DNA of 32,000 bases, taken from assembly GCF_000172995.2 (NCBI RefSeq), contig NC_014729.1, positions 330,001 through 362,000 on the forward strand, read 5' to 3'. Source of the DNA: Halogeometricum borinquense DSM 11551. GTDB taxonomy: Archaea > Halobacteriota > Halobacteria > Halobacteriales > Haloferacaceae. Positions within the stretch are counted from its first letter, which is position 1; each line of letters begins with the position of its first letter. Made by a program: the position numbers and the translations under genes. Positions 1 through 24,907 of this stretch are shown here, one piece after another. The notes under the pieces were generated by a model. That model saw nothing but the letters and a program-made list of their open reading frames with translations, made no database searches and had not been told where the DNA came from.

Positions 1-129
1 TCCGAAACCGGCGCTCGGCGCATTTCGCTCGCTGATCTTTCGGCAGAGCGAGTGTCGGAAGCCGCGGCGTCGGTTCACGACGCTTGATACTCTTCGGCTG
101 CTGACTCCCGTCTTACTATTCCTGACGAA

Positions 130-1344
130 CTACCGCGTCGCCGGACGTGTGTGGAGTCGATACGCGCCGTGGGTGACGCCTTCGTCGTGGTATTCGACGG
201 GTTCCTCGACTACCGCGAGAACGTCGTCACCAACTGCGACTGCCGTCGGGATACCCGCAATCGAATCCGTCTCGACGTGGCCTTCCTCGGCGTCGAACGT
301 GTGGACACCGTGCGTTTCGGCGCTTCGCCGCCGGAAGTTCTGCGCCGACGGGATGATCGCGCGCCCGTCGCTCGATCTGGCTGCGCGGGCGAAGCCACCG
401 TTGCTGTGCGTCCACAGTTGCTCTCCGTTTTCGACCGCGAATGCGGTATGTTCGTCCGGATGTCTTGCGTCCGGGTCGCGCGTCGATTCGGCGAACGTGT
501 TGCCCGTTACGAAGACGGCAACGCCGTCGGCGACGCAGACGTGATTCGGATAGGCGTACACCGTCTCCCCATCGATGTCCTGCTTCGTCGCAAGGTCGAA
601 CCCCCACTGCTCGTGGCCGTCGGAGTCGAGCAGGTAACCGCGTTTGTCACCGTGACAACAGACGGCGATATCGCCGTCCGCGAACGCCACGTCACCGACG
701 CGCCGGTCTTCGTCGGTGTCGGGATCCCACGTCGTGAGAGTGTCGCCAGTTTCGCTATCCAGTACGACGAGACCGTCTTGGTCGGGCTTCGGACACCGGT
801 TGTACGCGACGGCGACGCGGCCGTTCTCGACAGTCAGCGCGATTGGTGAGGCACCGACTCGGTAGCGCCACTGGACTGCTCCGTCGCGGTCGAAGCCGAG
901 GACGACGCTCGACCAGACTCGCTCGTCGCCGTCGCGTTCGTACCGTCTGGCGGCGGCGATTACCCGGTCGTCCGTGACCGCGACATCGACGACGTACGGG
1001 TAGAAAAACAGCGACTCCTTCGTCGCGGTCCCGATGTCGTCGGTCGTCGCGTACTCCCAGCGACGCTCACCCGTCTCCGGGTCTAGCACGCGCAGCGAGC
1101 TATCTTCGCCGCGTTCGCCGACGACGAGGCAGTCGTCGGTTGCGGCCATCGATACGACGCTTGTCGCGCCGTCCGCAGACCACAGTTCGCTGTCGAGAGC
1201 CGAGTCGAACGCGGATACCTGTCCGTCGTTCGTTCCCACGAACACCCGTCCGGCGGCGGCGGCGACGGCGGACCGCGCCCAGTTGTGTCTGCTCGCCGCG
1301 GCTTCGAGGTCGCCCAGTTCAGTTCGGTTCGTGAAGGCGGCCAT
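130..1344 (-). CDS. PQQ-like / BamB-like beta-propeller repeat protein (about 404 aa), last gene of the cobalamin operon
   Basis: The ORF track gives 130..1356. The sequence has repeated G-x-V/L-x-A-x-D-x-x-T/D-G-x-x-x-W units (e.g. GTNDGQVSAFDSALDSELW, VLDPETGERRWEY, VLDSETGDTLTTW, AVENGEQLWT), typical of PQQ-type propeller blades. The first ATG is at 1344. An alternative GTG at 1356 overlaps the upstream stop (1353-1355) by 4 nt. Confidence 0.75.
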   Translation of the reverse strand: MAAFTNRTELGDLEAAASRHNWARSAVAAAAGRVFVGTNDGQVSAFDSALDSELWSADGATSVVSMAATDDCLVVGERGEDSSLRVLDPETGERRWEYATTDDIGTATKESLFFYPYVVDVAVTDDRVIAAARRYERDGDERVWSSVVLGFDRDGAVQWRYRVGASPIALTVENGRVAVAYNRCPKPDQDGLVVLDSETGDTLTTWDPDTDEDRRVGDVAFADGDIAVCCHGDKRGYLLDSDGHEQWGFDLATKQDIDGETVYAYPNHVCVADGVAVFVTGNTFAESTRDPDARHPDEHTAFAVENGEQLWTHSNGGFARAARSSDGRAIIPSAQNFRRRSAETHGVHTFDAEEGHVETDSIAGIPTAVAVGDDVLAVVEEPVEYHDEGVTHGAYRLHTRPATR

Positions 1345-1352
1345 CGAGTCTC

Positions 1353-1730
1353 TCACTCCTCGACCGGGAACGTTTCGTGGAGCGTGTGGTGTGCTTCGCC
1401 GAGGTCTTCGAGGAACGAGTCCGTCTGTCCGCGGAGACGGCTCAGCGTCCGTTGGGCGTCCCGAACAGCGACCACGCGCCCACGGAGGTATCCGGACTGC
1501 GGGTCGTCGTCGTCGGCCTGCATCGCTTCCTCTTCAAGTTCGACGAGCGCGGCGTCGAGATGACGCTGTGCCTCGTCCAGTGTCGATGCTTCGGCCAGCG
1601 CCTGTATCGGGCCGGGTTCGTCCAGATAGCCTTCGAGTTCGGCCTCAGCGTGTTGTTTGACGCCCTCATCGACGGTTCCGGTAATGTTCATCAGTGCGAG
1701 TCGCAGTGCTTCGAGTTCAGCGCATGCCAT
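1353..1730 (-). CDS. Small acidic helical protein (125 aa) of unknown function, conserved cobalamin-operon-type protein (possibly DUF3209-like, from memory)
   Basis: This is the C-terminal part of ORF 1353..1886. I placed the start at the ATG at 1728-1730 (MACAELEALRLALMNITG...), because upstream of it the ORF is Arg-rich and overlaps the cbiX 3' end. It begins 2 nt after the cbiX stop (1733). The composition is acidic with high GC3. Confidence 0.65.
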   Translation of the reverse strand: MACAELEALRLALMNITGTVDEGVKQHAEAELEGYLDEPGPIQALAEASTLDEAQRHLDAALVELEEEAMQADDDDPQSGYLRGRVVAVRDAQRTLSRLRGQTDSFLEDLGEAHHTLHETFPVEE

Positions 1731-1732
1731 GA

Positions 1733-2947
1733 TTAGAGTGATTGGTGTACGAGGTCGGAGACGATGCGGTCCCGTTCGAGGTGGGACGAAACGATGCGTT
1801 CTGTGTCGTCGGGTGTCACGCTCCCGTACCAGATGCTGTCGGGGTAGACGGCGACGATGGGGCCGTCGCCGCACTGCCCCAGACACGAACTCCGCGAGAA
1901 GTGAACGTCGCAGTCGTCCGAATCTCGCGCGTGTTGTCTGAGTTGTTCGAGCACGGTCGCAGCGCCGCTTGCGGCACAGGTCTGGTTCGTACAGACGGCA
2001 ACGTGTTTTGCGGGCGCATCGTGGACGTGCGGGTCGTCGTCCACGTCGCTGCGGTCGGCGTGTTCGGCCTGATGGACGAGCGAGCGGAGCATCGCCCGCG
2101 CGCCGCCTTGGTCGTCTTCGTACCCCGACAGTTCGACTTTGTACTTGCAGGTGTCACACGACATCTCGACGCTTCCGGAGCGCGCTTCCTGACAGCGGTC
2201 CGCGAGTACGTCCACGAGTCGTTCGTCGGTTCCGAGCGGGCCGGACGCGCCGGCACGAACGTACGGATATTCGTCATCGAACGTCTCCGCCGTATCGATG
2301 ATCCGCTGCGTCAGGACGCCGTCACCGAGCATGTAGGGGACGACGACGACCGCGTCCGGTCGGTCCTTTGCGACGCTGTGGAGCGTGTCTTCGAGTCGGG
2401 GCGACGTGACGCCGATGAACGACGGTTCGACGCGAGTGAACTCGCGGCCTTCGTACAGCAGCCGCGAAAGCTTGTGTACGTCGCCGTTGGAGTCCGGGTC
2501 GCTCGACCCGCGAGCGCACAGCACCACGGCCACGTCGTCGTTGTCTCGGTCAACTCCGAGATCGGATTCGACAGTCCGGATGCGGTCATCGAGCAGGTCC
2601 ACAATCGACGGATGGATTCCGAGATGCGACCCGAAGTGGAACGTCACGTCATCGTACTTCGTCCGGGCGGTCTGAACCGCCATCGGCACGTCGTTTTTGA
2701 CGTGGCTGGCGGCGAACAACGACAGCGGGATCACCGTCAGCGTCCGACAGGTCGGTGCCAACGTCTCGATAGCGTCCTCGATTGACGGCTCAGCAAGCTC
2801 GATATACGCCGCATCGACGGGTACGGACAGTTCGGTTTCCAGTTTACCGGCGAGTGTCCGAACCTGTTCGTTCGACTTCTCCCGGCGCGACCCGTGTCCG
2901 ACGAGGAGTATCGCGTCGTCGTCGAGTGAGGGCTGCTCGGTACGCAT
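1733..2947 (-). CDS. cbiX: Sirohydrochlorin cobaltochelatase CbiX (double CbiX domain) fused to a His-rich linker and a C-terminal thioredoxin-like [2Fe-2S] ferredoxin domain
   Basis: AILLVGHGSRREKSNEQV and VVLCARGSSDPDSNGDV are the two CbiX-type half-domains. CDTC plus the His-rich segment HQAEHADRSDVDDDPHVHDAPAKH follow. The C-terminus carries CTNQTC...CLGQCGDGPIVAVYP (CX4C...CX3C). I placed the start at the ATG at 2945-2947 (MRTEQPSLDDD). This overlaps the upstream stop (2947-2949) by 1 nt. The longer ORF-track start (3037) would overlap the upstream gene by 91 nt. Confidence 0.88.
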   Translation of the reverse strand: MRTEQPSLDDDAILLVGHGSRREKSNEQVRTLAGKLETELSVPVDAAYIELAEPSIEDAIETLAPTCRTLTVIPLSLFAASHVKNDVPMAVQTARTKYDDVTFHFGSHLGIHPSIVDLLDDRIRTVESDLGVDRDNDDVAVVLCARGSSDPDSNGDVHKLSRLLYEGREFTRVEPSFIGVTSPRLEDTLHSVAKDRPDAVVVVPYMLGDGVLTQRIIDTAETFDDEYPYVRAGASGPLGTDERLVDVLADRCQEARSGSVEMSCDTCKYKVELSGYEDDQGGARAMLRSLVHQAEHADRSDVDDDPHVHDAPAKHVAVCTNQTCAASGAATVLEQLRQHARDSDDCDVHFSRSSCLGQCGDGPIVAVYPDSIWYGSVTPDDTERIVSSHLERDRIVSDLVHQSL

Positions 2948-3615
2948 CAGTTTTCGGCCTGTTCGAGGCTTCGTGTCAGCTTCTGTCGTCGTGTCGGTGC
3001 GAACAGGTTCGTCTCGTCGCTTCCGTCGTAGACCCACGTGCCGAACGGGGCCGCCGCGTCGTCGTCGAGACCGAACCAGTAGCCGCCGGACGAGGTTTCA
3101 CTAATTTCGCCCGTCGGCGCGTCAACCGGGCAGGCGTCGAGCAGGCTATCAACCGTCTCCAGCAGTTTCCGGTCATCGTGGACAAACGAGATGCCGACCG
3201 TCCCGCTGGACGACTTGAAACAGACGGTTCCGCAACTTTCGAGGAGTCCGCGGAGGAGTTGCCGCTGAAATTCTTCGAACACGTCGAATCGGTAGCCTCC
3301 GGCGTCGTCACCGACTGGAAGCCCGAACGCCGCAGTCGCGTTCGAGACAACGTCACCCTCGACCGTCACGAGATACTCGTCTTTTGTCCGGGTGACTGCG
3401 GTGTTGTGTGCGTAGGGCCGCTCGGTCTCCCGCTGGTCGATGTCGCCGCCGCCAGCGATAGCCGCGAGGCGGTCCGCACACGTCTCGTCGTTCGTACTGA
3501 TCGTGAACTCGCCCGGCTGAATGTCGCCGCTTCCTGCGACGTGTCCCCAGAGATAGGCTGTCTCGGGTGCGCCCTTCAGGAGATCCGACGCGGGTTCGAT
3601 GTCAGTGTCGCTCAT
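2947..3615 (-). CDS. Uncharacterised cobalamin-operon protein, 222 aa, with two degenerate LAGLIDADG-like motifs
   Basis: The ORF is acidic with good GC3. A 4-nt ATGA overlap joins it to the upstream ferredoxin gene and a 1-nt overlap joins it to cbiX. The motifs are AYLWGHVAGSGDIQPGEFTIST and QLLRGLLESCGTVCFKSSSGTVGISFVHDDRKLLETVDSLL. No methylase, chelatase or reductase signature was recognised. Confidence 0.8.
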   Translation of the reverse strand: MSDTDIEPASDLLKGAPETAYLWGHVAGSGDIQPGEFTISTNDETCADRLAAIAGGGDIDQRETERPYAHNTAVTRTKDEYLVTVEGDVVSNATAAFGLPVGDDAGGYRFDVFEEFQRQLLRGLLESCGTVCFKSSSGTVGISFVHDDRKLLETVDSLLDACPVDAPTGEISETSSGGYWFGLDDDAAAPFGTWVYDGSDETNLFAPTRRQKLTRSLEQAEN

Positions 3616-3863
3616 GTGTCTACCTCTCGAACCGTAATTGCGTCAGGTGGACACGCCTGCGCCGCCAGCTGCGCGTCATCGATATTTCCTTCGACCGTCG
3701 CGACGACGCTGTTTCGCTCGTCGTCGCGTGCGACTTCAATGACGCCCTCGGCGTCCGCATCAATCGTTGCGAGTCCCGTTTCGTCTTCGACGAATCGGCC
3801 GTCGCGGGCGAGACACGCGAAGATGCCGTCGCAGGCCGTCCGGTCGATTTCGATTTCGAACAT
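3612..3863 (-). CDS. Small ferredoxin (83 aa), single-cluster 4Fe-4S/3Fe-4S type
   Basis: MFEIEIDRTACDGIFACLARDG...AAQACPPDAITV has the C-x(2,5)-C...CP pattern of small bacterial-type ferredoxins. It starts 1 nt after the cbiH stop and is therefore in the operon. Confidence 0.8.
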   Translation of the reverse strand: MFEIEIDRTACDGIFACLARDGRFVEDETGLATIDADAEGVIEVARDDERNSVVATVEGNIDDAQLAAQACPPDAITVREVDT

Positions 3864-3864
3864 C

Positions 3865-4827
3865 TCAGTACTCGTATTTTTGCTCGTAGCCGCGGGGGGT
3901 CACCATCCGGCCGTCCCAGACGTAGGTCTCCTCGTTGCCGACGAGTAGCGTCGTCGTCATGTCTATGAGGTCCGTTTCGCCGAGTTCGGGAAGGTCTTGG
4001 AGTTCGACGATTTCGACTTCCTCGTCCTCGCGGCCCGCGCCGTGGACGATACCGACCGGCGTCTCGGGGTCGCGGTGTTCGAGCAGAATCTCGCAACACT
4101 TCTCGTAGTTCGACCGCCGCTTGCGACTCCACGGGTTGTAGATGACGATGGTGAAGCCCTCTTTTGCGGCCGAGTGCAGGCGAGATTCGATGGTCGGCAT
4201 CGACGTCAGGTGATCCGAGAGGCTGATGGTGACCGTGTCGTTCACCAAGGGCGCACCCAGTCGTGCGGCACAGGACTGTGCGGCGGGGACGCCAGCAACC
4301 ACGTCGAAATCGACCATGCTTGCGGTCGCACCTTTCGATTCGAGGATTTCGAGTGCAAGCCCAGCCAGCGCGTAGACGTTCGGGTCGCCGCTCCCGACGA
4401 TTGCCACGTCGTTGCCGGCGAGCGTTCGGTCGATTGCCTCCTCGGTCCGGGAGACTTCGCCACACATCGGCGTCGAGTAGATGTCCTCGGCACCCTCGAC
4501 GATGTCGTCGGGGAGGAGTTCGATGTACGTCGTGTAACCAACGATGTGTTCTGCGTCTCGGAGCGTCTCTTTCGCCAGCGTCGTCATCTCACTCGCTCGG
4601 CCGGGACCGAGGCCGACCGCGACGAGTTGGCCCGGTTCGGCGTCGAAGTCCTCGACGGTCGCTTCGACCTTCTCGTCAGTCTGTTCTTTCTTCGAACTCC
4701 CGCATTTGGAACTTGACGAGGTGTCCTTCGATTTCGAGGACCCACCGCACTTCGAGGTTGTTTCTTCGCTCGATTCGCTCGTCTTTCCGCCGCACTTCGA
4801 TTCGGATTGTGTGTTACTTTCGCTCAT
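3865..4827 (-). CDS. cbiH: Cobalt-factor III / precorrin-3B C17-methyltransferase CbiH with a roughly 60-aa Ser/Lys/Cys-rich N-terminal extension
   Basis: The tetrapyrrole methylase fold is indicated by LVAVGLGPGRASEMT, IVGYTTYIELL, VGSGDPNVYA, VVAGVPAAQSCAARLGAPL, TISLSDHL, IVIYNP and MVTPRGY. The N-terminus MSESNTQSESKCGGKTSESSEETTSKCGGSSKSKDTSSSSKCGSSKK precedes the methylase core. Confidence 0.9.
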   Translation of the reverse strand: MSESNTQSESKCGGKTSESSEETTSKCGGSSKSKDTSSSSKCGSSKKEQTDEKVEATVEDFDAEPGQLVAVGLGPGRASEMTTLAKETLRDAEHIVGYTTYIELLPDDIVEGAEDIYSTPMCGEVSRTEEAIDRTLAGNDVAIVGSGDPNVYALAGLALEILESKGATASMVDFDVVAGVPAAQSCAARLGAPLVNDTVTISLSDHLTSMPTIESRLHSAAKEGFTIVIYNPWSRKRRSNYEKCCEILLEHRDPETPVGIVHGAGREDEEVEIVELQDLPELGETDLIDMTTTLLVGNEETYVWDGRMVTPRGYEQKYEY

Positions 4828-4829
4828 GA

Positions 4830-5681
4830 TTAGAAGTCGTCAACGTCGCGCCCGCCGCGGGGCGTGACGAGGTACGTTTCGTAGTCGTTACTCCACGGTT
4901 CGGTCTCGTGCGTGCCGATGAGAATCGACGTTCCCATTCCGCCGACGTCGTCGTCGTGCGACTTCGCGTCGCCGAGAGTCGTAATCGAGAACGTCTCGTC
5001 GTCCAGATTTCGACCCGCCTCGCCGCGACCGGCGTCGTTGAAGATGCCGACCGGAACATCGTCGGCGCGTTCTTCGCGGACGATGTCGATAGCGCGGGTG
5101 TAGTTCCGCCAGCAGTTGTACAGGACGATGACGAAGTTGCTGATGGCGGCCGCGCGCAGTTTCTCCTCGATTTCGTCCCACCCGCGCCACTTGTCGGACA
5201 GCGAAATCGTACAGAAGTCGTTCGACAGCGGCGCGCCCATCATCGCCGCGCCGCCGAGTGCCGCGGTCACGCCGGGGACGATTTCGATTGGAACGTCCGT
5301 CGCGTCGTCGGATTCCGCCATCGTGAACACGAGGTCGGACTTGCCGTAGACGTTCGGGTCACCGCCGGAGACGTGCGCCACGTCCTCGCCGTCTCGAACT
5401 CGCTCGAAGGCTTCGCGGGTCAGTTCGACCTGTTGGCCCATCGAGGAACGGACGACTTCCGGGCCGTCGTCGCTGTCTTCTGGCGGAAGCGTCCCATCGT
5501 CGCGGAGGAATTCCTGATAGAGATTCGAGGCGACGACGCAATCGGAAGTCTGGATGACTTCCTTGGCACGCTGGGTCATGTGATCCGGGAGACCGGGACC
5601 GATGCCGACGACGTAGAGTGTTCCGTAGTCGTCGGGGACTTCCGCGTGGCTGTCTGTCGTCGTCTCCGCGCCTTCGCTCAT
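4830..5681 (-). CDS. cbiH: Second CbiH-like tetrapyrrole methyltransferase (paralog, 283 aa)
   Basis: Motifs are LYVVGIGPGLPDHMT, VSGGDPNVYG, IVPGVTAALGGAAMMGAPL, TISLSDKW, IVLYNCW and LVTPRGG. It shares the ISLSD / TPRG CbiH-type signatures but is divergent. It overlaps cbiG by 4 nt and lies 2 nt upstream of the other cbiH. Confidence 0.85.
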   Translation of the reverse strand: MSEGAETTTDSHAEVPDDYGTLYVVGIGPGLPDHMTQRAKEVIQTSDCVVASNLYQEFLRDDGTLPPEDSDDGPEVVRSSMGQQVELTREAFERVRDGEDVAHVSGGDPNVYGKSDLVFTMAESDDATDVPIEIVPGVTAALGGAAMMGAPLSNDFCTISLSDKWRGWDEIEEKLRAAAISNFVIVLYNCWRNYTRAIDIVREERADDVPVGIFNDAGRGEAGRNLDDETFSITTLGDAKSHDDDVGGMGTSILIGTHETEPWSNDYETYLVTPRGGRDVDDF

Positions 5682-6640
5682 CGTCCCACCGCCACGGTCA
5701 CCGCGTCGTCGTAGCGCTGCTTTTCGACAATGAGTTCGTGGTCGCGGCCGCCGGCAATCGCGCTCGCTTCAGCAATTCCCGGCCAGCCGATGAGTTCCTT
5801 CGACCGCGACGGCGTCGGTCCCTCGAACTCGGTGAGCGTCTCCTTCTCGAAGTAGACGACGCCCGCATCGATTTCTTGGGCGGCGTCGAGCATGCCGGGT
5901 TCGTCGGCCTTTCGCGTGCCGGTGGCGACGAAGTCAACGTCGTCCCAGTCGCAGTCGGCGTCGTCGAGTGCGCGTTCCCACGCGGTCAGGAACTGCTCTT
6001 TCTTCGCGCCGGAGACGCTGCCGGTGCCGAGGACGACGCCGTCGTCGCCGTTTCGCTTGAGAACGGTCACGTCGTCATCGACGAGGACGGCTTTCGGTCC
6101 GTCGAGTCGGGCCACTGGGCCGAGTTCGTCGTTGAGGACGGCGAGGTTCGTCGCAACGGTCGAATCGCCGTTGACGACGTGTGTGTCGAGCGCCTTCGCC
6201 TTGCTCTCGACACCCTGCTTTCCGGCCGCCTCGGAGGCGGTCGTCATCGCCGGCACCGCGCCGAGTTTCGAGAGGTCGTAGGCGACCTGATTCGCGCCGT
6301 GATGTCCGCCGGTGAGCGGAATCGCCCACGTGAGTTCTTCGTCTACGACGACGACCGCGGGGTCTTCCCACTTGTCGTCGAGGAGGCCGGCGGTCTTTCG
6401 CATGGCAATCCCGCTGGCCATCAGGCCGACGAAACAGTCGTATTCGCCCCAATGCTCGGCGAACACGTCGCCGTGGTAGGTGAGGATGTCTATCCTGTCG
6501 TAGTCGTCCGCGAGGTCCCGCTTGATCTCTTCGGCCGTCTCCAGTTTCCGTTCGAAACTGACGATAGCAATCTCGCGGGCGACTTCTCCGTCGCTGTCCG
6601 GTGTACTACAGTGTCCGCTTCCGGAATCAGAATCACTCAT
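5678..6640 (-). CDS. cbiG: Cobalt-precorrin-5A hydrolase CbiG
   Basis: Motifs are FVGLMASGIAMRKTAGLLDDKWEDPAVVVVDE and IPLTGGHHGAN, with a C-terminal ...IGWPGIAEASAI domain. It has 4-nt overlaps with cbiF and the cbiH paralog. Confidence 0.9.
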   Translation of the reverse strand: MSDSDSGSGHCSTPDSDGEVAREIAIVSFERKLETAEEIKRDLADDYDRIDILTYHGDVFAEHWGEYDCFVGLMASGIAMRKTAGLLDDKWEDPAVVVVDEELTWAIPLTGGHHGANQVAYDLSKLGAVPAMTTASEAAGKQGVESKAKALDTHVVNGDSTVATNLAVLNDELGPVARLDGPKAVLVDDDVTVLKRNGDDGVVLGTGSVSGAKKEQFLTAWERALDDADCDWDDVDFVATGTRKADEPGMLDAAQEIDAGVVYFEKETLTEFEGPTPSRSKELIGWPGIAEASAIAGGRDHELIVEKQRYDDAVTVAVGR

Positions 6641-7482
6641 TGTGTATCACGCTCCTGTGTTTCAGAATCGTCGCCGTCGTTCGGCGCGTCACCACCGCGA
6701 GCCCAGTCGCCGTAGAGGAACGACCGCTCGTAGTCTGAGCCGGTGACCGCCTCGCCAATCATCACGAGTGCCGAAGCCCGATAGCCGGCTTCGGACACCT
6801 TCTGGCCAATCGTCTCGATGGTACCTTCGATAACGTCCTCGTCCGGCCACGAGGCGTGGTAGACGACCGCGACCGGCGTCTCGGGGTCGTGTCCCTCGTC
6901 CAGCAGTCGGTCCATCGTTTCTTCAACGGCGTGCGTCCCGAGGTAGATACACACCGTCGTGTCGCCGAAGCCGACGAAGTCGCTGATGTGGTCTTCTTCG
7001 GCAGAGAGCGTCCGACCCTGTGGCCGGGTAAAGACGACGTGATTTGCGACTTCGTTCAGCGTCAACTGCGTTCTGAGCGTCGCGCTCGCGGCGAATGCGG
7101 AGGTGACGCCCGGAACGAGGTACGTCGGCACGCCCTCGGATTCCAGCGCGTCCATCTGTTCGAGCGCCGCACCGTATACCGCCGGGTCGCCGCTGTGAAG
7201 ACGGACGACCGTCTCGCCGGATTCGTAAGCGTCGGCCATCAGCGGAATCAGCTCTTCGAGGTCCTTGCCGACGCTGTTGACCTGCTCGGCGTGGTCACAG
7301 TACTCGTCGAGGAGTTCGCTGTTGACGAGCGACCCGGCGTGAACGACGAGGTCTGCTTCTTCGACGAGTCGCCGCCCCGCGACCGTAAGCAGTTCAGGGT
7401 CGCCCGGCCCGGCACCGACGAAGGGAATCCCCTCCTTGTCGGTGAAGCCGGTGTCTGCGTCGCCGTCGACGGGGTCGCTCAT
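6637..7482 (-). CDS. cbiF: Cobalt-precorrin-4 C11-methyltransferase CbiF
   Basis: Motifs are FVGAGPGDPELLTVAGRRLVEEADLVVHAGSLV, VVRLHSGDPAVYGA and LVPGVTSAFAASA. Confidence 0.9.
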   Translation of the reverse strand: MSDPVDGDADTGFTDKEGIPFVGAGPGDPELLTVAGRRLVEEADLVVHAGSLVNSELLDEYCDHAEQVNSVGKDLEELIPLMADAYESGETVVRLHSGDPAVYGAALEQMDALESEGVPTYLVPGVTSAFAASATLRTQLTLNEVANHVVFTRPQGRTLSAEEDHISDFVGFGDTTVCIYLGTHAVEETMDRLLDEGHDPETPVAVVYHASWPDEDVIEGTIETIGQKVSEAGYRASALVMIGEAVTGSDYERSFLYGDWARGGDAPNDGDDSETQERDTQ

Positions 7483-8207
7483 TTCGACACCTCCGGCTCG
7501 ACCGCGTCGGTATCCGCCGACTCAGCGTCGAACTCCGCGGTCGCAACGTCACGTTCGAGACCTTCGCGCTCTGCGTACGCCAGCGTGTAGTAATCACGTT
7601 CTGCGATTTCCTGCGGATTCGACGTTACGAGCGTCTCACCCTGCTCCATGAAGAGACGGCGTCCGAATTTTACATCGTATCCGGCTTCTGTCAGCCCCTC
7701 GTAGGTCGCGGGGGCGTCGGTGACCTTGAACAGAATCATCCGATCAGGCCCGGTCGGGGCCGCGCCGTTTGCGGCCTCGCGGAGCGAGAGGCCGGTTCCG
7801 GATTCGATTTCGACGCCGAGTGCGGTGGCGAACGCCGTCATCGCACTCACGCCGGGCACGACTTCGAGTTCGACCGCTGGATGGAACGCATCGAGCGTCC
7901 GGCGGAGATGGCCGAACGTCGAATACACGTTCGGGTCGCCGAGCGTCACGAATGCAACGTCACCCGATTCGGCTCTCTCTGCGACCTCTGCGGCGGCTTC
8001 CTTCCACGCGCGTCGGAGTTCGTCCGGGTCGCGCGTCATCGGGAAGTCGAGGTCGCCGATTCGTTCTTCGGGGACGTGGTTCAGCGCGACAGTCCGCGAG
8101 AGTCGGCCCGGAGAGTAGACCACATCGACCGATTCGAGAATCCGCTTTCCTTTGACGGTCACGAGGTCGGCATCGCCGGGACCCAATCCGACGCCGTAGA
8201 CGGTCAT
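7479..8207 (-). CDS. cbiL: Cobalt-factor II (precorrin-2) C20-methyltransferase CbiL
   Basis: Motifs are MTVYGVGLGPGDADLVTVKGKRILESVDVVYSPG, VAFVTLGDPNVYSTF and VVPGVSAMTAFA. Confidence 0.88.
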   Translation of the reverse strand: MTVYGVGLGPGDADLVTVKGKRILESVDVVYSPGRLSRTVALNHVPEERIGDLDFPMTRDPDELRRAWKEAAAEVAERAESGDVAFVTLGDPNVYSTFGHLRRTLDAFHPAVELEVVPGVSAMTAFATALGVEIESGTGLSLREAANGAAPTGPDRMILFKVTDAPATYEGLTEAGYDVKFGRRLFMEQGETLVTSNPQEIAERDYYTLAYAEREGLERDVATAEFDAESADTDAVEPEVSK

Positions 8208-8764
8208 CAGTCCAGCCCTCCGGCGTCGCGCCGTCCGACGATGATGTACACCGGATTGTTGGATTTGAAACTCGTCGCTCCGGCGAGTTCGTAGCCGTGG
8301 CTCACCTGCATCTGGACGACTTCGTCGAGCAGGTCACGTTCGCGGAAGGCCTCGATTGCCGCACCGGTCGGTTCGACCCGCGAGACGTTCATGACGACGC
8401 GGTCGATTTCGGATTTGACGGCGTGGTCCAGCACCGCCTCGAAGTTCCGGCTCCCGCCGATGAACATCGCATCCGCGTCGTCCGGGAGACCTGCCGGTGC
8501 TTCCGCCTCGTGGAGCGCTACGTCGGCATCGTACTCGTTCGCCGCGAGGTTCTTCCGCGTCACCTCCAGTCGCTTTGCCTTTCGTTCGACAGCGGTCACC
8601 CGTTTGACTCGTTGCGCCGCTTCGATGCTAACCGACCCGGTACACGACCCGACATCGACGAAGTGGTCAGTCGGACGTAAGTCGAGTTTGTCGAGCGTTA
8701 CCGCTCGCACCTCCGACTTCGTCGGTCCTGCCTTGGCGTCGTGCGGGAGCGTTACGCGTGACAT
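8207..8764 (-). CDS. cbiT: Cobalt-precorrin-6B C15-methyltransferase (decarboxylating) CbiT, first gene of the operon
   Basis: PTKSEVRAVTLDKLDLRPTDHFVDVGSCTGSVSIEAA is a class I SAM methyltransferase motif in the CbiT context. The gene is 185 aa and overlaps the cbiL start by 1 nt. Confidence 0.88.
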   Translation of the reverse strand: MSRVTLPHDAKAGPTKSEVRAVTLDKLDLRPTDHFVDVGSCTGSVSIEAAQRVKRVTAVERKAKRLEVTRKNLAANEYDADVALHEAEAPAGLPDDADAMFIGGSRNFEAVLDHAVKSEIDRVVMNVSRVEPTGAAIEAFRERDLLDEVVQMQVSHGYELAGATSFKSNNPVYIIVGRRDAGGLD

Positions 8765-8929
8765 TCGAATCTACTATCCAGACGACGTTTGAAAACAATT
8801 ATGCTTGTAGTACAGCAAACTGAGTTTCACAACCGATGCGGCTGTAATTATTAAACCCGAGTTGCGTTAGAACAATCAAAATTGATTTATGTCGGTGCTC
8901 TCATCGAACCGACACGGAGAGATTCACTA
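8765..8929. promoter_or_regulatory. AT-rich divergent control region between the cbiT operon and cbiMNQO
   Basis: This is a 165-bp AT-rich spacer in a GC-rich genome. TATA-like AATTAT lies at 8797-8802, about 35 nt from the cbiT ATG on the minus strand. AATTATTAAA at 8846-8855 and ATTTAT at 8885-8890 lie upstream of cbiM. There is an imperfect palindrome GCTTGTAGTACAGC at 8803-8816 and a 5-bp hairpin GTCGG...CCGAC at 8891-8913. Confidence 0.5.
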
Positions 8930-9592
8930 ATGCACATCATGGAAGGGTTTTTGCCACCGTTTTGGGCGTTCGTTTGGACGGCGGTCGCGCTCCCGTTCGT
9001 CGCCTACGGAGCCAAGCGAACGATCAAAACGATGCGGGCAGACACCAAAATGAAGGCGCTCATCGCAATCGGGACGGCGTTCGTCTTCGTTCTCTCGGCG
9101 CTCAAACTCCCATCGGTGACCGGGAGTAGTTCGCACCCGACTGGGACAGGTGTCATGGTCGTCCTGTTCGGTCCGGCAGTCACCGCTTTCGCCGCCGCTA
9201 TCGTCCTCCTCTATCAGTCTTTACTGCTTGCCCACGGAGGACTGACGACGCTCGGTGCGAACGTTGTGGCAATGGGAATCGTCGGCCCGTTCGTCGGTTG
9301 GGTCGCATACCGTGCCGTTCGGTCGTCCCTCTCGCTCGAACAATCGACGTTCGTCGCCGCGGTACTCGCTGACTGGACGACGTATCTCACCACATCGGTC
9401 CAACTTGGGGTAGCGTTCCCCGGAGGTGGTGGAATCGATGGTATACTCACATCAGTCATCGACTTCGTTGCGGTGTTCGCCATCACGCAAGTCCCCATTG
9501 GGATTCTCGAAGGTGTCATCGCGGCGGCACTCGTCGGCTATCTCGCTCGCGTGGGTTCAGTTACGAAAGACCGTCTGGGGGTCACAGCATGA
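8930..9592 (+). CDS. cbiM: Cobalt ECF transporter substrate-capture component CbiM
   Basis: I placed the start at ATG 8930, giving MHIMEGFLPPFWAF. The Met-His N-terminus is the conserved metal-ligating start of CbiM/NikM. The protein is multi-pass hydrophobic. The ORF-track TTG start at 8882 is rejected. Confidence 0.9.
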   Translation: MHIMEGFLPPFWAFVWTAVALPFVAYGAKRTIKTMRADTKMKALIAIGTAFVFVLSALKLPSVTGSSSHPTGTGVMVVLFGPAVTAFAAAIVLLYQSLLLAHGGLTTLGANVVAMGIVGPFVGWVAYRAVRSSLSLEQSTFVAAVLADWTTYLTTSVQLGVAFPGGGGIDGILTSVIDFVAVFAITQVPIGILEGVIAAALVGYLARVGSVTKDRLGVTA

Positions 9593-9861
9593 AACGTCCG
9601 CTCGCGGCTGGTCTGTTGGTTGTCGGTCTCGTCATCCTCAGTACGATAGCGGTGTCTGGGCTGGGGGCGACAGACGAACAGGCGGTCGCAACGATCACAG
9701 ACAAGGATCCGAACTACAGTCCGTGGATGGGCCCCGTATGGGAACCACCGGGTGGGTACGGAGAGATGGCGCTGTTCGCACTACAGGGAGGTGTTGCGGC
9801 CTTCGTCCTGACGTACTACGTCGAGCGCCTCACGGACGGGACGTATGCATCAGACGCTTGA
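9589..9861 (+). CDS. cbiN: Cobalt transport protein CbiN
   Basis: The 90-aa protein has two TM segments flanking ...DKDPNYSPWMGPVWEPPGGYGEMALFALQ. It has an ATGA overlap with cbiM. Confidence 0.85.
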   Translation: MKRPLAAGLLVVGLVILSTIAVSGLGATDEQAVATITDKDPNYSPWMGPVWEPPGGYGEMALFALQGGVAAFVLTYYVERLTDGTYASDA

Positions 9862-10576
9862 AGGCATTCAGGCCGAAGCGACGCCGGTCATCGACGGGCC
9901 GCTGAAAGTATATTTTGTCGCGGTCTCGCTGTTGTTGACTGCGACGAGCGCTCGCCTTCCGACGTTCGTCGCCGTCATCGTTGTCTTCTCGGTTCTCACG
10001 ACGCACGCCGTCGGACGGGCGTATTTCAGATTCGTTCGGTATCCGTTCTGGTTTCTGGTCCCGAGCCTCGCCCTGATTACGTTCGTCACTCCCGGTCAGA
10101 CGGTCTTCGAGTATTCCGTCCTTCACGTCTCTGAGGAGGGGGTTCGACTTGCGATACGGACTGGCCTGCGCTCAGTCGCGTCGCTGTCGGTGCTCTCGTT
10201 TCTCGCGCTCACTACGACTGTTCCGCAACTCGTCTCTGCGTTGGACAGACTGGGTCTTCCCGATTCGATTGTCGAGATGCTGCTGTTGGTGTACCGCGGC
10301 ATTCAGGTACTGATCGACGAATCGATTCGGCTGTACACCGCCGCAAAACTCCGCGGTGGGTTCACGTCTCGACGCTCGACGTTCCGAACGACGAAACACG
10401 TCGCAACATCACTGCTTTTGAGTTCGCTCGACAGCGCAGAACAACTCGACTTGTCGATGCGCTCGCGGTGCTACTCCGGTCGCTTCCCAGTTCGAGAGTA
10501 CGAGAGCCACGGTCACGCGTACGCACTGGGTGTGCTCGCTGTCATCGTGTTCGTGAAATTCGGACAGCTGCTATGA
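9845..10576 (+). CDS. cbiQ: ECF transporter transmembrane (T) component CbiQ
   Basis: The protein is hydrophobic, with ...LRSVASLSVLSFLALTTTVPQLVSALDRLGLP...LLLVYRGIQVLIDE...AAKLRGG, the ARG-type coupling motif region of EcfT/CbiQ. Confidence 0.85.
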   Translation: MHQTLEGIQAEATPVIDGPLKVYFVAVSLLLTATSARLPTFVAVIVVFSVLTTHAVGRAYFRFVRYPFWFLVPSLALITFVTPGQTVFEYSVLHVSEEGVRLAIRTGLRSVASLSVLSFLALTTTVPQLVSALDRLGLPDSIVEMLLLVYRGIQVLIDESIRLYTAAKLRGGFTSRRSTFRTTKHVATSLLLSSLDSAEQLDLSMRSRCYSGRFPVREYESHGHAYALGVLAVIVFVKFGQLL

Positions 10577-11268
10577 TACGCACTGACGACCTTCATTTCG
10601 GCTACGACGAACAGTCTATCCTCCGTGGAATCGACTTCCGCGCCGAGACGGGAGACGTAACGGTCCTGCTCGGGCGGAACGGCGCCGGTAAATCGACGCT
10701 TCTCAAGCATCTCAACGGACTTCTCGAACCCGACCGCGGTCACGTGATGATCGACGGCGACCGGATTCAGTACGACGACGATAGCCTCCTCAGCCTCCGA
10801 CAGGAGGTCGGATTCGTGTTTCAGGACCCCGACGACCAACTCGTCGCCCCGACGGTCGAACAGGACGTGGCGTTCGGTCCGATCAACCTCGGCACCGACC
10901 CGACTGAAGCCGTCGAGTGGGCGCTCTCCCGCGTCGGCCTTGCGGGCTACGAAGATCGTCTGTGTAGCCGACTGAGCGGTGGCGAGAAAAAGCGCGTCGC
11001 ACTGGCGGGCGTCCTCGCCATGAAGCCGAAATACCTCATTTTCGATGAACCGACGGCCGGTCTCGACGGTGATGGGACGCGCGCACTCGTTGATCTCATT
11101 CGTGAACTCACGAACGAGGGCATCTCTTTCGTCGTTTCGACCCACTACCCCGACTTTGCCGCTGCAGTCGGCGATACGTTCACGCTAATCGACGATGGAC
11201 AGGTCGCCTGCCGTGAGTCGTCGCTCGATGAAATTCCCGCAAAGAAGTATGGGCTGAGAGGAGTCTGA
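10573..11268 (+). CDS. cbiO: ECF/cobalt ABC transporter ATPase CbiO
   Basis: I placed the start at ATG 10573 (MIRTDDLHFGY), which has an ATGA overlap with the cbiQ stop. Walker A is GRNGAGKST, the signature is LSGGEKKRVALAG and Walker B is LIFDEPTAGLD. Confidence 0.9.
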   Translation: MIRTDDLHFGYDEQSILRGIDFRAETGDVTVLLGRNGAGKSTLLKHLNGLLEPDRGHVMIDGDRIQYDDDSLLSLRQEVGFVFQDPDDQLVAPTVEQDVAFGPINLGTDPTEAVEWALSRVGLAGYEDRLCSRLSGGEKKRVALAGVLAMKPKYLIFDEPTAGLDGDGTRALVDLIRELTNEGISFVVSTHYPDFAAAVGDTFTLIDDGQVACRESSLDEIPAKKYGLRGV

Positions 11269-11367
11269 CACTTCGTAAGTATCTCGTATATCGATGTAAA
11301 CGGCCGTTTTGGTTCCTATCACTCTCCATGAGGATACTCATTTATACGCGCAGTGATGTGTGTCACT

Positions 11368-12012
11368 ATGCATCAGGCCGTACTCCGAATTAACAGCAAC
11401 ACCCCGTACGAACGAGCGACTGCTGGGTCTGATGCGCGAATCGAGTTGTGGTGTAACAACCACTGTGACCTGCTCTCCGTCGATGGTCGCGTCGGTGAGG
11501 AGGTGTTCGATCATATCGAGGAGACGGTCGGGGTGTACAACGAACTCCGCGGCGAACACGGCCGCGTAATCGTTACGGATGCCTGTTTGAAGGCTCACAG
11601 CAAGCACAACATCGAACCGTATCTGGAATCCAACAACTGCCTGCTTGTGCCGCCAATCCGCTACGAAGGCGGTGCCAAGCGCGTTCGTGTGCTTGCTTCC
11701 CGTGCGGAGGATCTCACGAACTTCTACGCCGAGATTACCGAAACGTACGAGGTTCACGTAGAGTCGAAGAGAGAAATCACGGCGGTGTTTGCAGACCAGC
11801 CTGTCGTGTCGTTGCAGGCGCTCTTACCGACACTATCACCCCGTCAACGCGAGATTTTCACCCTCGCACACGAGCGTGGTTATTACGAAATTCCCCGTGA
11901 AACCACGACGACCGAACTGGCCGAAGAAGTCGGAATCCAGCGCCGCACGCTCGAACATCATCTTCGCCGCACTGAGGAGAAACTCGCGGACGCGTTCGTC
12001 GAATTGCTCTGA
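11368..12012 (+). CDS. HTH_10 (bat-type) helix-turn-helix transcriptional regulator
   Basis: The C-terminal LSPRQREIFTLAHERGYYEIPRETTTTELAEEVGIQRRTLEHHLRRTEEKL is the haloarchaeal HTH_10 signature. TTTATA at 11341-11346 lies 27 nt before ATG 11368, which suggests a leaderless transcript. Alternative in-frame starts are at 11353 and 11356. Confidence 0.8.
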   Translation: MHQAVLRINSNTPYERATAGSDARIELWCNNHCDLLSVDGRVGEEVFDHIEETVGVYNELRGEHGRVIVTDACLKAHSKHNIEPYLESNNCLLVPPIRYEGGAKRVRVLASRAEDLTNFYAEITETYEVHVESKREITAVFADQPVVSLQALLPTLSPRQREIFTLAHERGYYEIPRETTTTELAEEVGIQRRTLEHHLRRTEEKLADAFVELL

Positions 12013-21356: not shown

Positions 21357-23537
<2,181 letters not shown>

Positions 23538-24810: not shown

Positions 24811-24848
24811 CGTCGGGGGAGTGAGCGACGCGAACGGACCCGACGGGA
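24811..24848. repeat. Proximal copy of the 38-bp direct repeat, overlapping the last 14 nt of tRNA-Arg
   Basis: CGTCGGGGGAGTGAGCGACGCGAACGGACCCGACGGGA. A third partial copy, ACGGACCCGACGGGA, lies at 24768-24782. Confidence 0.9.
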
Positions 24849-24907
24849 TTTGAACCCGCGACATCTTGGTCCGGAACCAAGCACTCTGTCCACTGAGCTA
24901 CGGGCCC
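24835..24907 (-). tRNA. tRNA-Arg (anticodon CCG), 73 nt, CCA not encoded
   Basis: The minus strand folds as GGGCCCG-TA-GCTC-AGTGGACA-GAGT-G-CTTGG-TTCCGGA-CCAAG-ATGTC-GCGGG-TTCAAAT-CCCGT-CGGGTCC-G. This is a full cloverleaf with U33, anticodon CCG and the TTCAAAT T-loop. Confidence 0.93.

Follow-up and report, generated by a model that had tools for sequence, protein, structure and literature searches.

A DUF3209 protein paired with a long iron-sulfur CbiX, and a facultative beta-propeller, at the end of a haloarchaeal cobalamin operon

Results

Gene content and layout of the operon

The window that we analysed is a 32,000-nt stretch of the Halogeometricum borinquense DSM 11551 genome (NC_014729.1, positions 330,001 to 362,000). 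Its minus strand carries an 11-gene operon: cbiT-L-F-G-H1-H2, followed by genes for a ferredoxin, a 222-aa protein, CbiX, a DUF3209 protein and a beta-propeller, with all ten junctions falling within −4 to +8 nt. The six upstream genes (3865–8764; cbiH2, cbiH1, cbiG, cbiF, cbiL and cbiT in ascending coordinates) share this tight spacing with those for a single-cluster ferredoxin (3612–3863; Fer4_15, three cysteines, orthologue of HVO_B0056), a LAGLIDADG-like protein of 222 aa (2947–3615; orthologue of HVO_B0055) and the long CbiX cobaltochelatase (1733–2947; Pfam CbiX 167 bits, 2Fe-2S_thioredx 39.3 bits). The 222-aa protein matches PF14528 weakly and is assigned to PF26411 in precomputed tables; a PDB sequence search with it returned nothing significant. 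The two tail genes, both on the minus strand, encode a 125-aa DUF3209 protein (1353–1730; identified through PF11483 and PDB 2EHW, and orthologous to HVO_B0053 and TTHB059) and, as the last gene of the operon, the propeller (130–1344; orthologue of HVO_B0052, identified through Pfam PQQ_2 and an AF2 model). Divergently from cbiT, the plus strand carries cbiM, cbiN, cbiQ and cbiO (8882–11268; Pfam matches), which form a cobalt ECF transporter. A convergent plus-strand open reading frame ends near position 87, beyond the propeller gene.

The close packing of the tail genes that had been read from the sequence alone is borne out at both junctions. The TAA of cbiX (1735–1733) is separated by 2 nt from the ATG of the 125-aa frame (1730), the TGA of which lies at 1355–1353. 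The propeller has two possible starts, a GTG at 1356 that overlaps this stop codon by 4 nt (GTGA) and an ATG at 1344, 8 nt downstream. Public annotation picks the ATG, giving a protein of 404 aa (P0121, 100% identity and coverage); by our reading of the sequence, a Shine-Dalgarno-like GGAGTGA (1353–1359, minus strand) lies 8 nt 5' of this ATG and overlaps the DUF3209 stop codon. The count of four operon genes with no assigned step also agrees with the literature: the identical four are listed for Hfx. volcanii (PMC8305020).

Transcription of the tail genes

The only extended AT-rich stretches in positions 1–9000 are in the divergent cbiT/cbiM intergenic region (8788–8892), which, on its sequence, is likely to be the promoter site of the operon. 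No AT-rich TATA-like stretch occurs in 1009–3099, and neither tail gene is preceded by an AT-rich element. We infer that the DUF3209 and propeller genes are co-transcribed with cbiT-to-cbiX, an arrangement consistent with the sequence. Haloarchaeal promoters are sometimes situated within coding sequence. A scan of positions 1–9000 for the strict haloarchaeal TATA pattern TTTAWA gave no site and is uninformative, because even the region upstream of cbiT gave none. One terminator was predicted, at 1026–1002; this is a coding TTTTT in a conserved FxxPY motif, and the promoter/terminator scan that produced it uses a bacterial model that does not apply to archaea. An Rfam scan of the window gave one tRNA (24835–24907) and no riboswitch.

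Linkage and distribution of the two tail genes

HVO_B0052 and HVO_B0053 have been described as unassigned, synteny-conserved genes of the cobalamin cluster (Pfeiffer & Dyall-Smith 2021, PMC8305020), with a gene order that is, in most haloarchaea, tied strictly to that of cbiTLFGH1H2; the supplement to that study adds that the abundance of the HVO_B0052 protein shifts with temperature, like that of other cobalamin enzymes. Both the linkage and the set of four unassigned genes have therefore been published before, and the finding itself is not new. However, that study pools the four genes as candidates and favours a PQQ oxidoreductase, whereas we separate DUF3209 from the propeller. New here are their separate histories, the pairing of DUF3209 with a CbiX that carries a 2Fe-2S domain (CbiX-2Fe2S), the DUF3209 signature, the donor-bearing clusters that lack CbiJ, and the facultative nature of the propeller; PMC8305020 reports neither the bacterial distribution of DUF3209 nor its pairing with CbiX-2Fe2S, nor that about 20% of clusters have no propeller.

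The sequence-only reading would have been refuted by a lack of conserved linkage to cob genes, and such linkage was found: haloarchaeal genomes and metagenomes repeatedly show the order cbiT-L-F-G-H1-H2-fdx-p222-cbiX-DUF3209-propeller. DUF3209 lies immediately 3' of cbiX in essentially all of 80 haloarchaeal genome loci, and the propeller immediately 3' of DUF3209 in 63 of 79; among metagenomic haloarchaeal loci, 20 of about 29 that could be evaluated carry the propeller. Searches anchored on propeller orthologues, made at two loci, led back to the same operon both times, and the 222-aa protein is present in 76 of the 80 genome loci. The linkage of the tail genes to the operon is far above chance. 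In Haloferax, both genes occupy the same place after cbiX1, with the DUF3209 protein about 76–78% and the propeller about 67–68% identical to those of the window.

Beyond haloarchaeal genomes the two genes part company. CbiX and DUF3209 adjoin in 77 of the 80 metagenomic loci that had been retrieved with a CbiX-2Fe2S alignment (two of the three exceptions are contig ends, hence 77 of 78 evaluable), and they are also neighbours in Thermus and in three divergent bacterial contigs. Propeller orthologues are confined to haloarchaea, as are the 222-aa protein, the small ferredoxin and the second CbiH; where the propeller is present, it always comes right after DUF3209. It is missing from about 20% of haloarchaeal clusters, which retain all ten other genes (absence was scored within ±10 kb of the cluster, so that a copy relocated elsewhere in the genome would escape). 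The earlier proposal of a joint tail unit thus holds for the linkage to the operon but not for the unit itself, as DUF3209 follows CbiX across two domains of life. The histories of DUF3209 and the propeller differ, and the propeller is a facultative haloarchaeal addition.

CbiX and the genes around the CbiX-DUF3209 pair

The long CbiX combines an MXCXXC motif and two CbiX domains with a thioredoxin-like [2Fe-2S] domain at its C-terminus; its CxxC, its HxH and the four 2Fe-2S cysteines are invariant in all of the DUF3209-linked CbiX proteins that we aligned. DUF3209 clusters always include an electron donor, either a ferredoxin or an FNR-like flavoprotein, and an FNR-like gene lies immediately downstream of the pair in 34 loci. 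Other metal or redox neighbours of DUF3209 are CbtB-CbtA, HupE/UreJ and a free 2Fe-2S ferredoxin, and the pair adjoins the SUMT gene (cobA) both in Thermus and in locus L089. Bacterial DUF3209 clusters retain CbiD; we saw no SirC-type gene in them.

The Thermus thermophilus HB8 protein TTHB059 (PDB 2EHW) belongs to the same family as the DUF3209 protein of the window and has the same fold, at 35% identity, and it shares its position directly after a long CbiX with four 2Fe-2S cysteines. The Thermus cluster differs in having CbiD and a single CbiH, and in having no propeller, 222-aa protein or small ferredoxin. Bacillus megaterium offers a more distant likeness, with a long two-domain CbiX bearing MXCXXC and a thioredoxin-like 2Fe-2S protein in its cbi operon, the ferredoxin of which is CbiW; unlike in B. 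megaterium, however, the 2Fe-2S module of the window is fused to CbiX and is then followed by DUF3209, which B. megaterium presumably lacks, while presumably having CbiJ. According to Leech et al. 2003 (cited in PMC7242693), the MXCXXC motif of B. megaterium CbiX-L holds a 4Fe-4S centre.

A conserved Cys/His/Glu signature in DUF3209

The 125-aa protein matches PF11483 over the entire profile (positions 1–124 of 124; 175.9 bits, cut-off 25; E = 5.6e-52) and 2EHW by PDB sequence search (E = 7e-11). Its AF2 model (pLDDT 93.8) superposes on 2EHW with a TM score of 0.85–0.90 and an rmsd of about 2 Å. In a fold search there was no significant structural neighbour besides 2EHW; helical-bundle matches to CopM, thioferritin and DUF305 came at E of about 1 and are not evidence. 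A helical protein of 125 aa offers little room for a tetrapyrrole site, barring oligomerisation. The family is tiny, numbering 50 representatives in a set of 1.84 billion proteins, and always standalone. We searched for domain fusions and found none that was convincing: the one candidate (P0297) has a weak FNR-like tail and resembles a frameshifted neighbour gene. Our literature search for TTHB059 found no publication, 2EHW being a structural-genomics entry, and that for DUF3209 gave a single match, a row in a transcriptome table in which HVO_B0053 is up-regulated after deletion of a provirus.

The small protein had been described as all-helical and acidic, with no recognised cofactor motif. 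The first two properties stand (the model is all-helical, and the pI is 4.3); the third was too strong a statement, because the family has a near-invariant Cys/His/Glu signature. As defined in this analysis from 161 archaeal and bacterial sequences, this signature reads M-[AST]-C-x-E / H-x3-E / Y / H-x3-H: M1, C3, E5 and Y81 are found in 161 of 161, and H27, E31, H114 and H118 in 160. Residue 2 is Ala, Ser or Thr in every sequence, so removal of the initiator methionine should be possible. The DUF3209 protein of the window carries M1, A2, C3, E5, H27, E31, Y81, H114 and H118. Ni/Co metallochaperones have N-terminal metal sites, such as the MHE motif of HypA and Cys2 of CooT. DUF3209 resembles these in being a small protein with an invariant N-terminal motif (X-Cys-x-Glu after Met removal) plus His, and in having its gene beside that of a metal-inserting enzyme; its fold is different, and there is no homology.

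An eight-bladed propeller with an Arg/His-rich face

Assignment of the last gene to PQQ/BamB-type propellers is confirmed by the Pfam PQQ_2 score (57.4 bits, cut-off 27.6), and its AlphaFold model has eight blades (pLDDT 93.3). The protein was also correctly described as lacking a signal peptide: there is no hydrophobic N-terminus, no twin-arginine motif and no lipobox. In the model, residues 6–9 form the closing strand of blade 8, leaving no room for a cleavable signal peptide; a secreted protein was accordingly rejected, and the propeller is taken to be cytoplasmic. It is 47–77% identical to its counterparts in 119 clusters over at least 96% of its length, and about 60 residues are invariant across haloarchaeal families. 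When the alignment is mapped onto the model, 11 invariant Arg and 6 invariant His residues all fall on one face; these are located at B strand ends, in B>C and D>A loops and in A strands, whereas the A>B and C>D loops have none. The invariant residues include R133, R134, R137, H231, H268, H295 and H299.

PQQ-enzyme and BamB functions were considered for the propeller and rejected. Foldseek returned only generic 8-blade scaffolds, such as BamB, the WD40 domain of Fbw7 and designed propellers. BamB and PQQ alcohol dehydrogenases share the fold class and repeat type, at an identity of only 12–15%, but the propeller of the window has no lipoprotein or secretion signal and stays below the cut-offs of the equivalog and enzyme models. 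For PQQ-dependent dehydrogenases the scores were 18.5 against 480 bits (TIGR03075) and 13.9 against 26.7 bits (PF01011), and sequence matches to quinoproteins span just one or two blade repeats. BamB function was rejected on TIGR03300 (53.1 against 285.2 bits) and NF008351 (38.7 against 423), with about 80 residues aligned; BamB structures match the model at TM 0.55–0.65, and to our knowledge haloarchaea have no outer membrane.

Propellers that bind tetrapyrroles include the heme-d1 proteins NirS, NirN and NirF, which are periplasmic. Together with BtuG of Bacteroides, a corrinoid-binding propeller (PMC6143338, PMC10404256), they set a precedent, by analogy only, for a propeller face that holds a polycarboxylated tetrapyrrole. 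BtuG itself is a 7-bladed surface lipoprotein for uptake, whereas the propeller of the window has eight blades and no DUF5074/YNCE Pfam match, and BtuG lies outside the top Foldseek matches; a BtuG-type identity was therefore rejected. The conserved face is equally compatible with a protein-protein interface.

The CbiJ gap

Haloarchaea lack both CbiJ and CbiD (PMC6719526, PMC8305020). With no recognisable CbiD or CbiJ, two consecutive steps of the haloarchaeal early-cobalt pathway are therefore without a known enzyme (PMC8305020, PMC6719526). The CbiJ family PF02571 has no match in either tail protein. A tblastn search with Salmonella CbiJ gave no match at E ≤ 1 in 171 DUF3209 loci (2.6 Mb) or in the window; this was one query of limited sensitivity, and it covers the loci, so that CbiJ elsewhere in the genomes is possible. 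No CbiJ is annotated in the 40-kb B12 supercluster of Thermus pTT27, which otherwise covers the route that starts at uroporphyrinogen III as far as cobyric acid, and there is no strong CbiJ Pfam match in the 8 kb upstream of 12 bacterial clusters (the genes downstream are contiguous). In PLSDB, the same CbiJ query matched 341 records, and neither Thermus nor Haloferax is among the positive organisms with at least three records; a CbiC query, in contrast, found 34 Thermus and 7 Haloferax plasmids. Since the bacterial clusters retain CbiD, the module that they have in common with haloarchaea follows the CbiJ gap and not the CbiD gap.

Discussion

The two tail genes are two of only four candidates for the missing CbiD and CbiJ steps. 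Our data split these candidates: bacterial clusters that contain CbiD and apparently lack CbiJ have DUF3209 and the CbiX Fe-S domain in common with haloarchaea, and the division into bacterial-shared and haloarchaea-only genes makes the four-gene problem experimentally specific. DUF3209, a family with a solved structure, also gains a defined partner and a candidate ligand site.

The identity of the genes, their synteny and distribution, the folds and the conserved residues are established; binding of a metal or corrin, and the step of the pathway that is served, are inferred. Our preferred, still tentative, reading is that both tail genes, as the final cistrons of the operon, have accessory functions in early-cobalt corrin synthesis, each in a role of its own. 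DUF3209 would be a dedicated small partner of the long Fe-S cobaltochelatase CbiX. After Met removal, X-Cys3-x-Glu5, together with His27/Glu31 and with His114/His118, which lie where the long C-terminal helix ends, may form a ligand site, for which Co(II) or a cobalt-tetrapyrrole would be the most likely ligand. The protein may act with the [2Fe-2S]/MXCXXC domain of the chelatase and with an electron donor (the ferredoxin in haloarchaea; the FNR-like flavoprotein or the free 2Fe-2S ferredoxin in bacteria), serving a redox-linked step at cobalt insertion or later. The propeller would be a dispensable, haloarchaea-specific add-on and not a PQQ enzyme; its Arg/His-rich face would most likely hold a polyanionic cobalt-precorrin intermediate or dock acidic pathway proteins, making it a carrier or scaffold in the CbiD-less, CbiJ-less haloarchaeal route.

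A more specific proposal, which we consider unlikely, is that the CbiX [2Fe-2S] domain, DUF3209 and the donor form a non-orthologous, ferredoxin-type substitute for CbiJ, the cobalt-precorrin-6A reductase that depends on NAD(P)H, with DUF3209 providing the substrate and proton-donor site. Ferredoxin-dependent bilin reductases, which are also cofactor-free, offer an analogy. The failure to detect CbiJ in DUF3209 clusters, in pTT27 and upstream of the 12 bacterial clusters speaks for this proposal, as do the PLSDB contrast, the published haloarchaeal absence of CbiJ and CbiD, and the retention of CbiD in the bacterial clusters that carry the module. Against it, a CbiJ gene may sit elsewhere in these genomes, beyond a single tblastn query of limited sensitivity, and SirC is also missing from DUF3209 clusters, so that another redox step is equally possible. 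Moreover, B. megaterium, the cbi operon of which encodes the Fe-S proteins CbiW, CbiX-L and CbiH60, has CbiJ as well, and Fe-S modules alone therefore do not imply a replacement of CbiJ. We are similarly doubtful of a wider version, in which this replacement module spans haloarchaea, Thermus and many uncultured bacteria, and a haloarchaea-only set (the CbiH1 paralogue, the LAGLIDADG-like protein, the small ferredoxin and the Arg/His-faced propeller) serves a CbiD-less C1-methylation branch; here, the propeller would be a cytoplasmic carrier of corrin intermediates.

It is less probable again that the propeller, whether a generic protein-protein scaffold or a neutral hitch-hiker, has no specific part in B12 synthesis and that DUF3209 is merely a structural or stabilising subunit of CbiX. 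The generic 8-blade Foldseek matches and the facultative presence of the propeller are in line with the former, and 2EHW as the sole significant structural neighbour of DUF3209 with the latter. However, the 47–77% identity, fixed position and roughly 60 invariant residues of the propeller argue against hitch-hiking, and a near-invariant Cys/His/Glu set across archaea and bacteria favours chemistry over packing.

We give still less weight to a reading in which CbiJ is not involved, and the Fe-S domain, DUF3209 and the donor feed either CbiH ring contraction or the oxidation of precorrin-2 to sirohydrochlorin. The adjacency of the pair to SUMT in Thermus and L089 and the bacterial clusters without a SirC-type gene are compatible with such a role, as is the fact that CbiH60 of B. 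megaterium, an enzyme that requires reducing conditions, has an Fe-S extension not present in the CbiH proteins of the clusters. Ring contraction by CbiH, from cobalt-factor III to cobalt-precorrin-4, is reductive, and the oxidation of precorrin-2 is coupled to chelation (for the canonical early-cobalt steps, see PMC7242693). This reading leaves the absence of CbiJ unexplained, and the haloarchaeal SirC is located elsewhere (HVO_2312, PMC8305020).

The remaining alternative pairs the propeller, as a PQQ-dependent oxidoreductase, with the 4Fe-4S ferredoxin at the missing reductase step (PMC8305020 supplement). The PQQ_2 repeats, the co-located ferredoxin and invariant His, Asp and Glu residues on one face, which could be catalytic, speak for it; against it stand family-model scores far below cut-offs, quinoprotein matches of one or two blades, and a gene that is missing from about 20% of intact haloarchaeal clusters and from all CbiJ-less bacterial ones. 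PQQ enzymes are periplasmic, in contrast to this predicted cytoplasmic propeller, and we know of no PQQ synthesis in archaea; of the explanations considered here, this is the least probable.

Two tail genes of the cobalamin operon

The genes for a 125-aa protein and a 404-aa beta-propeller protein, each 100% identical to a public H. borinquense protein, close a minus-strand operon of 11 ORFs that runs from 8764 to 130: cbiT (8764-8207), cbiL (8207-7479), cbiF (7482-6637), cbiG (6640-5678), cbiH1 (5681-4830), cbiH2 (4827-3865), a Fer4_15 ferredoxin (3863-3612), a 222-aa protein (3615-2947), cbiX (2947-1733), the 125-aa ORF, a DUF3209 member (1730-1353), and the propeller (1344-130). Spacing at all 10 junctions is -4 to +8 nt. 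The tail coordinates of the sequence-only reading were exact: 2 nt separate the cbiX stop from ATG 1730, and the TGA at 1355-1353 is followed after 8 nt by ATG 1344, or, with GTG 1356 as the start, the two genes overlap by 4 nt. Public annotation begins the propeller (404 aa) at ATG 1344, and an SD-like GGAGTGA lies 8 nt 5' of this codon. Near position 87 a convergent plus-strand ORF comes to its end, which leaves the propeller as the final gene before that neighbour. The cobalt transporter genes cbiMNQO diverge from cbiT, and the cbiT/cbiM intergenic region (8788-8892) is the sole extended AT-rich DNA within 1-9000; between 1009 and 3099 we saw no AT-rich stretch in the window sequence. This distribution agrees with a single operon promoter, without proving it.

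Several other products of this region drew our attention. The N-terminal ~55 codons of CbiH2 (about 4827-4660, minus strand) form a Ser/Lys-rich extension with three K-C-G-[GS] repeats, possibly a thiol- or metal-binding tail, which typical CbiH proteins do not have. The ferredoxin (3612-3863, minus strand) has three cysteines only, suggesting a single cluster of the [3Fe-4S] type. The 222-aa protein (2947-3615, minus strand) has a LAGLIDADG-like domain (a weak PF14528 match; PF26411 LAGLIDADG_4 in precomputed tables) and is kept in 76/80 haloarchaeal cbi loci and in 0 bacterial clusters; a homing-endonuclease-type fold is an odd recruitment to a biosynthetic operon. Directly after cbiO comes an HTH_10/HVO_A0563_N-type transcription regulator (11353-12012, plus strand), a candidate for control of the cobalt/B12 region. 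Further away, and with no relation to the B12 genes, are a catalase-peroxidase-type gene (21393-23537, plus strand; two Pfam peroxidase domains) and a tRNA gene (24835-24907, minus strand).

Linkage across haloarchaea

With one genome scanned per species, 229 species yielded DUF3209 relatives; we examined the best 80 loci, all haloarchaeal, by tblastn with the 11 window proteins. Gene order was that of the window throughout, and cbiX lay directly 5' of DUF3209 at every locus whose sequence reaches that far. Sequence was long enough to judge the position of the propeller in 79 loci: in 63 of them its gene was directly 3' of DUF3209, on the same strand and with a gap of -4 to 131 nt. The other 16 (Halobellus, Halorubrum, Halopenitus, Halohasta, Haloarcula montana and several MAGs) have no propeller within 10 kb; they keep all 10 remaining operon genes, and DUF3209 is followed by chlID/cobN, CbtA-like genes or unrelated genes. 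When the propeller orthologues of Halalkalicoccus and Halococcus served as anchors, this operon was reached again, the propeller overlapping DUF3209 by 8 nt. These adjacencies constitute the conserved linkage to cob genes on which the sequence-only reading had staked its claim and, with the close packing in the window, they support its view of the two genes as a coupled tail of the operon. One metagenome contig (L165; GC 0.48, unusually low) holds a haloarchaeal-type cluster without the propeller or a detectable small ferredoxin, and may represent a reduced, Haloquadratum-like form of the operon.

The linkage was already published: by SynTax, in most haloarchaea the four unassigned operon genes, the two tail genes among them, are strictly coupled to cbiTLFGH1H2, and they were put forward as candidates for two open steps, EC 2.1.1.195 (CbiD) and EC 1.3.1.106 (CbiJ), the authors preferring to give the reductase role to the PQQ protein plus ferredoxin and the C1 methylase role to CbiH1 (PMC8305020). 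That haloarchaea are without CbiD and CbiJ is also stated elsewhere (PMC6719526). Our finding is therefore a correct rediscovery; published work already lists it as an open annotation issue. We add a testable hypothesis for the missing reductase and a distinction between the two tail genes, whose functions we infer: DUF3209 is a near-obligate partner of an Fe-S cobaltochelatase in archaea and bacteria, with a putative ligand site, and the propeller is a facultative haloarchaeal accessory.

DUF3209 accompanies an Fe-S CbiX in archaea and bacteria

In the megaplasmid B12 supercluster of Thermus, the DUF3209 gene lies directly 3' of a 367-aa CbiX. We also scanned metagenomes in the reverse direction, with an alignment of CbiX-2Fe2S (long CbiX with a fused thioredoxin-like [2Fe-2S] domain), and obtained at least 535 relatives; among the best 80 loci, 77 had DUF3209 directly 3' of CbiX-2Fe2S, and two of the three that did not are contig ends. 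These loci fall into two cluster types, haloarchaeal (as in the window) and bacterial (soil, groundwater, marine). The latter reads CbiX-2Fe2S, DUF3209, FNR-like protein (34 loci), CbiD, CbiC, CbiET, CbiL, CbiG, CbiH, a 137-aa protein and CbiF; variants without the FNR-like gene have a free 2Fe-2S ferredoxin in its place. Divergent metagenomic members of the DUF3209 family have these neighbours: ChuX-like, CbiX-2Fe2S, DUF3209, HupE/UreJ, 2Fe-2S ferredoxin, CbiD and more cbi genes (L085); CbiX-2Fe2S, DUF3209, an FNR-like FAD_binding_6 protein, CbiD and more cbi genes (L086); SUMT, CbiX-2Fe2S, DUF3209, CobO and more genes (L089); and, on a TARA ocean contig, CbtB, CbtA and DUF3209 (L088, 9001-10372), with cobalt transporter genes in place of cbiX. 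L087 carries an orphan DUF3209 (10001-10426) without B12 context, next to a 366-aa protein without a Pfam match.

The linked CbiX proteins, Thermus included, share two CbiX domains, an invariant CxxC, HxH and four thioredoxin-like [2Fe-2S] cysteines; in Thermus the four cysteines are present and the Pfam score of the [2Fe-2S] domain is sub-threshold. The invariant CxxC corresponds to the MXCXXC motif, in which B. megaterium CbiX-L carries a 4Fe-4S centre. Window CbiX (1733-2947, minus strand) has MXCXXC as in that protein plus the fused thioredoxin-like [2Fe-2S] domain, and the invariant HxH and His residues lie between the two in all linked proteins, that of the window included.

The 137-aa ORF between CbiH and CbiF recurs in 19 bacterial-type clusters (L095, L099, L101 and L112 among them; 15882-16295 in L085) without a Pfam match, and adds one more unassigned gene to these B12 clusters. 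The supercluster of Thermus pTT27 (L084) contains two hypothetical proteins, a 277-aa apolipoprotein-like coiled coil (6642-7475, minus strand) and a 602-aa TPR protein (8203-10011, minus strand), neither of which resembles CbiJ.

A conserved Cys/Glu/His signature in DUF3209

The 125-aa protein belongs to Pfam DUF3209, which it matches over its full length (E 5.6e-52), and is a homologue of Thermus thermophilus TTHB059 (crystal structure 2EHW), on which its AlphaFold model (pLDDT 93.8) superposes at TM 0.85-0.90; a fold search found no significant structural neighbours beyond 2EHW. The family is tiny: an exhaustive profile search of 1.84 billion proteins gave 50 representatives at 50% identity, always standalone and about 120-140 aa. 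We compared 161 unique sequences, of which haloarchaeal genome loci supplied 80, the metagenome scan 72, divergent metagenomic members 5, Thermus 3 and the window one. M1, C3, E5 and Y81 are invariant in this set, and H27, E31, H114 and H118 are kept in 160. No member has an N-terminal extension, and residue 2 is Ala, Ser or Thr in every sequence; under the usual methionine-aminopeptidase rule Met could then be removed, which would expose an X-Cys-x-Glu N-terminus. The model has helices at 4-17, 22-31, 41-46, 51-71 and 77-120. From this topology we infer packing of the N-terminus with helix 2 and the end of the long helix, which would bring Cys3, Glu5, His27, Glu31, His114 and His118 into proximity, a set typical of a transition-metal or axial-ligand site.

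Distribution of CbiJ and CbiD

With Salmonella CbiJ (taken from locus L172) as query, 341 PLSDB records gave CobK/CbiJ matches of 26-36% identity, with neither Thermus nor Haloferax among the organisms with at least three such records; a CbiC query of PLSDB found 34 Thermus and 7 Haloferax plasmids. The CbiJ query had no match at E <= 1 in the window plus 171 other loci (2.6 Mb of locus sequence in total), and the 8-kb stretches preceding 12 bacterial-type clusters held no strong CbiJ Pfam match. Thermus and 29 bacterial-type loci have CbiD; 80/80 haloarchaeal loci and the window lack it. The haloarchaeal type alone carries the propeller, the 222-aa protein, the small ferredoxin and the CbiH1 paralogue. 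Thus CbiX-2Fe2S, DUF3209 and an electron donor form the module shared by all these apparently CbiJ-less clusters, and the genes confined to haloarchaea go with the further loss of CbiD. Two caveats attach to reading this module as the answer to the CbiJ gap: B. megaterium has Fe-S proteins alongside a normal CbiJ, and SirC was likewise not seen in the bacterial clusters.

The propeller as a haloarchaeal accessory

The 404-aa protein has a PQQ_2 match above threshold, and its model (pLDDT 93.3) has eight blades, with an N-terminal strand that closes blade 8; by its sequence and by the place of this strand, the protein has no signal peptide. Foldseek returned generic 8-blade scaffolds only (12-15% identity). 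Orthologues share 47-77% identity over full length, the named ones all being haloarchaeal. In a 30-sequence alignment, 11 Arg (19, 24, 78, 133, 134, 137, 183, 214, 289, 338, 340) and six His (231, 268, 295, 299, 345, 386) are invariant. By DSSP of the model, every invariant polar residue falls at a B-strand end, in a B>C or D>A loop or on an A strand; together these sites make up a single face that surrounds the central channel. In the A>B and C>D loops only structural glycines are kept. A strictly kept Arg/His face in an acidic proteome (pI 4.5) suggests that the propeller binds a polyanion. Cobalt-precorrins have eight carboxylates each, which suggests one of these as a candidate ligand, with acidic partner proteins as the alternative. 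Heme-d1 propellers are a precedent for tetrapyrrole binding by such folds. Another is the corrinoid binder BtuG (PMC6143338, PMC10404256). We found no homology of the window propeller to either, and the likeness is one of analogy only.

About 20% of clusters that are otherwise intact lack the propeller, as do all bacterial CbiJ-less clusters, which argues against a role as obligatory reductase. The protein fell short of every enzyme and equivalog model. The PQQ alcohol dehydrogenase model scored 18.5 bits against a cut-off of 480, which argues against a quinoprotein, and BamB was rejected at 53 bits against the equivalog cut-off of 285.

We also noted, in a pooled scan of the 8-kb regions upstream of the 12 bacterial-type loci, three ORFs that match beta-propellers of the Cytochrom_D1/YNCE/DUF5074 type. 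The same regions hold FecCD, ABC-ATPase and periplasmic-binding-protein genes, and these propellers may be BtuG-like corrinoid binders near B12 clusters.
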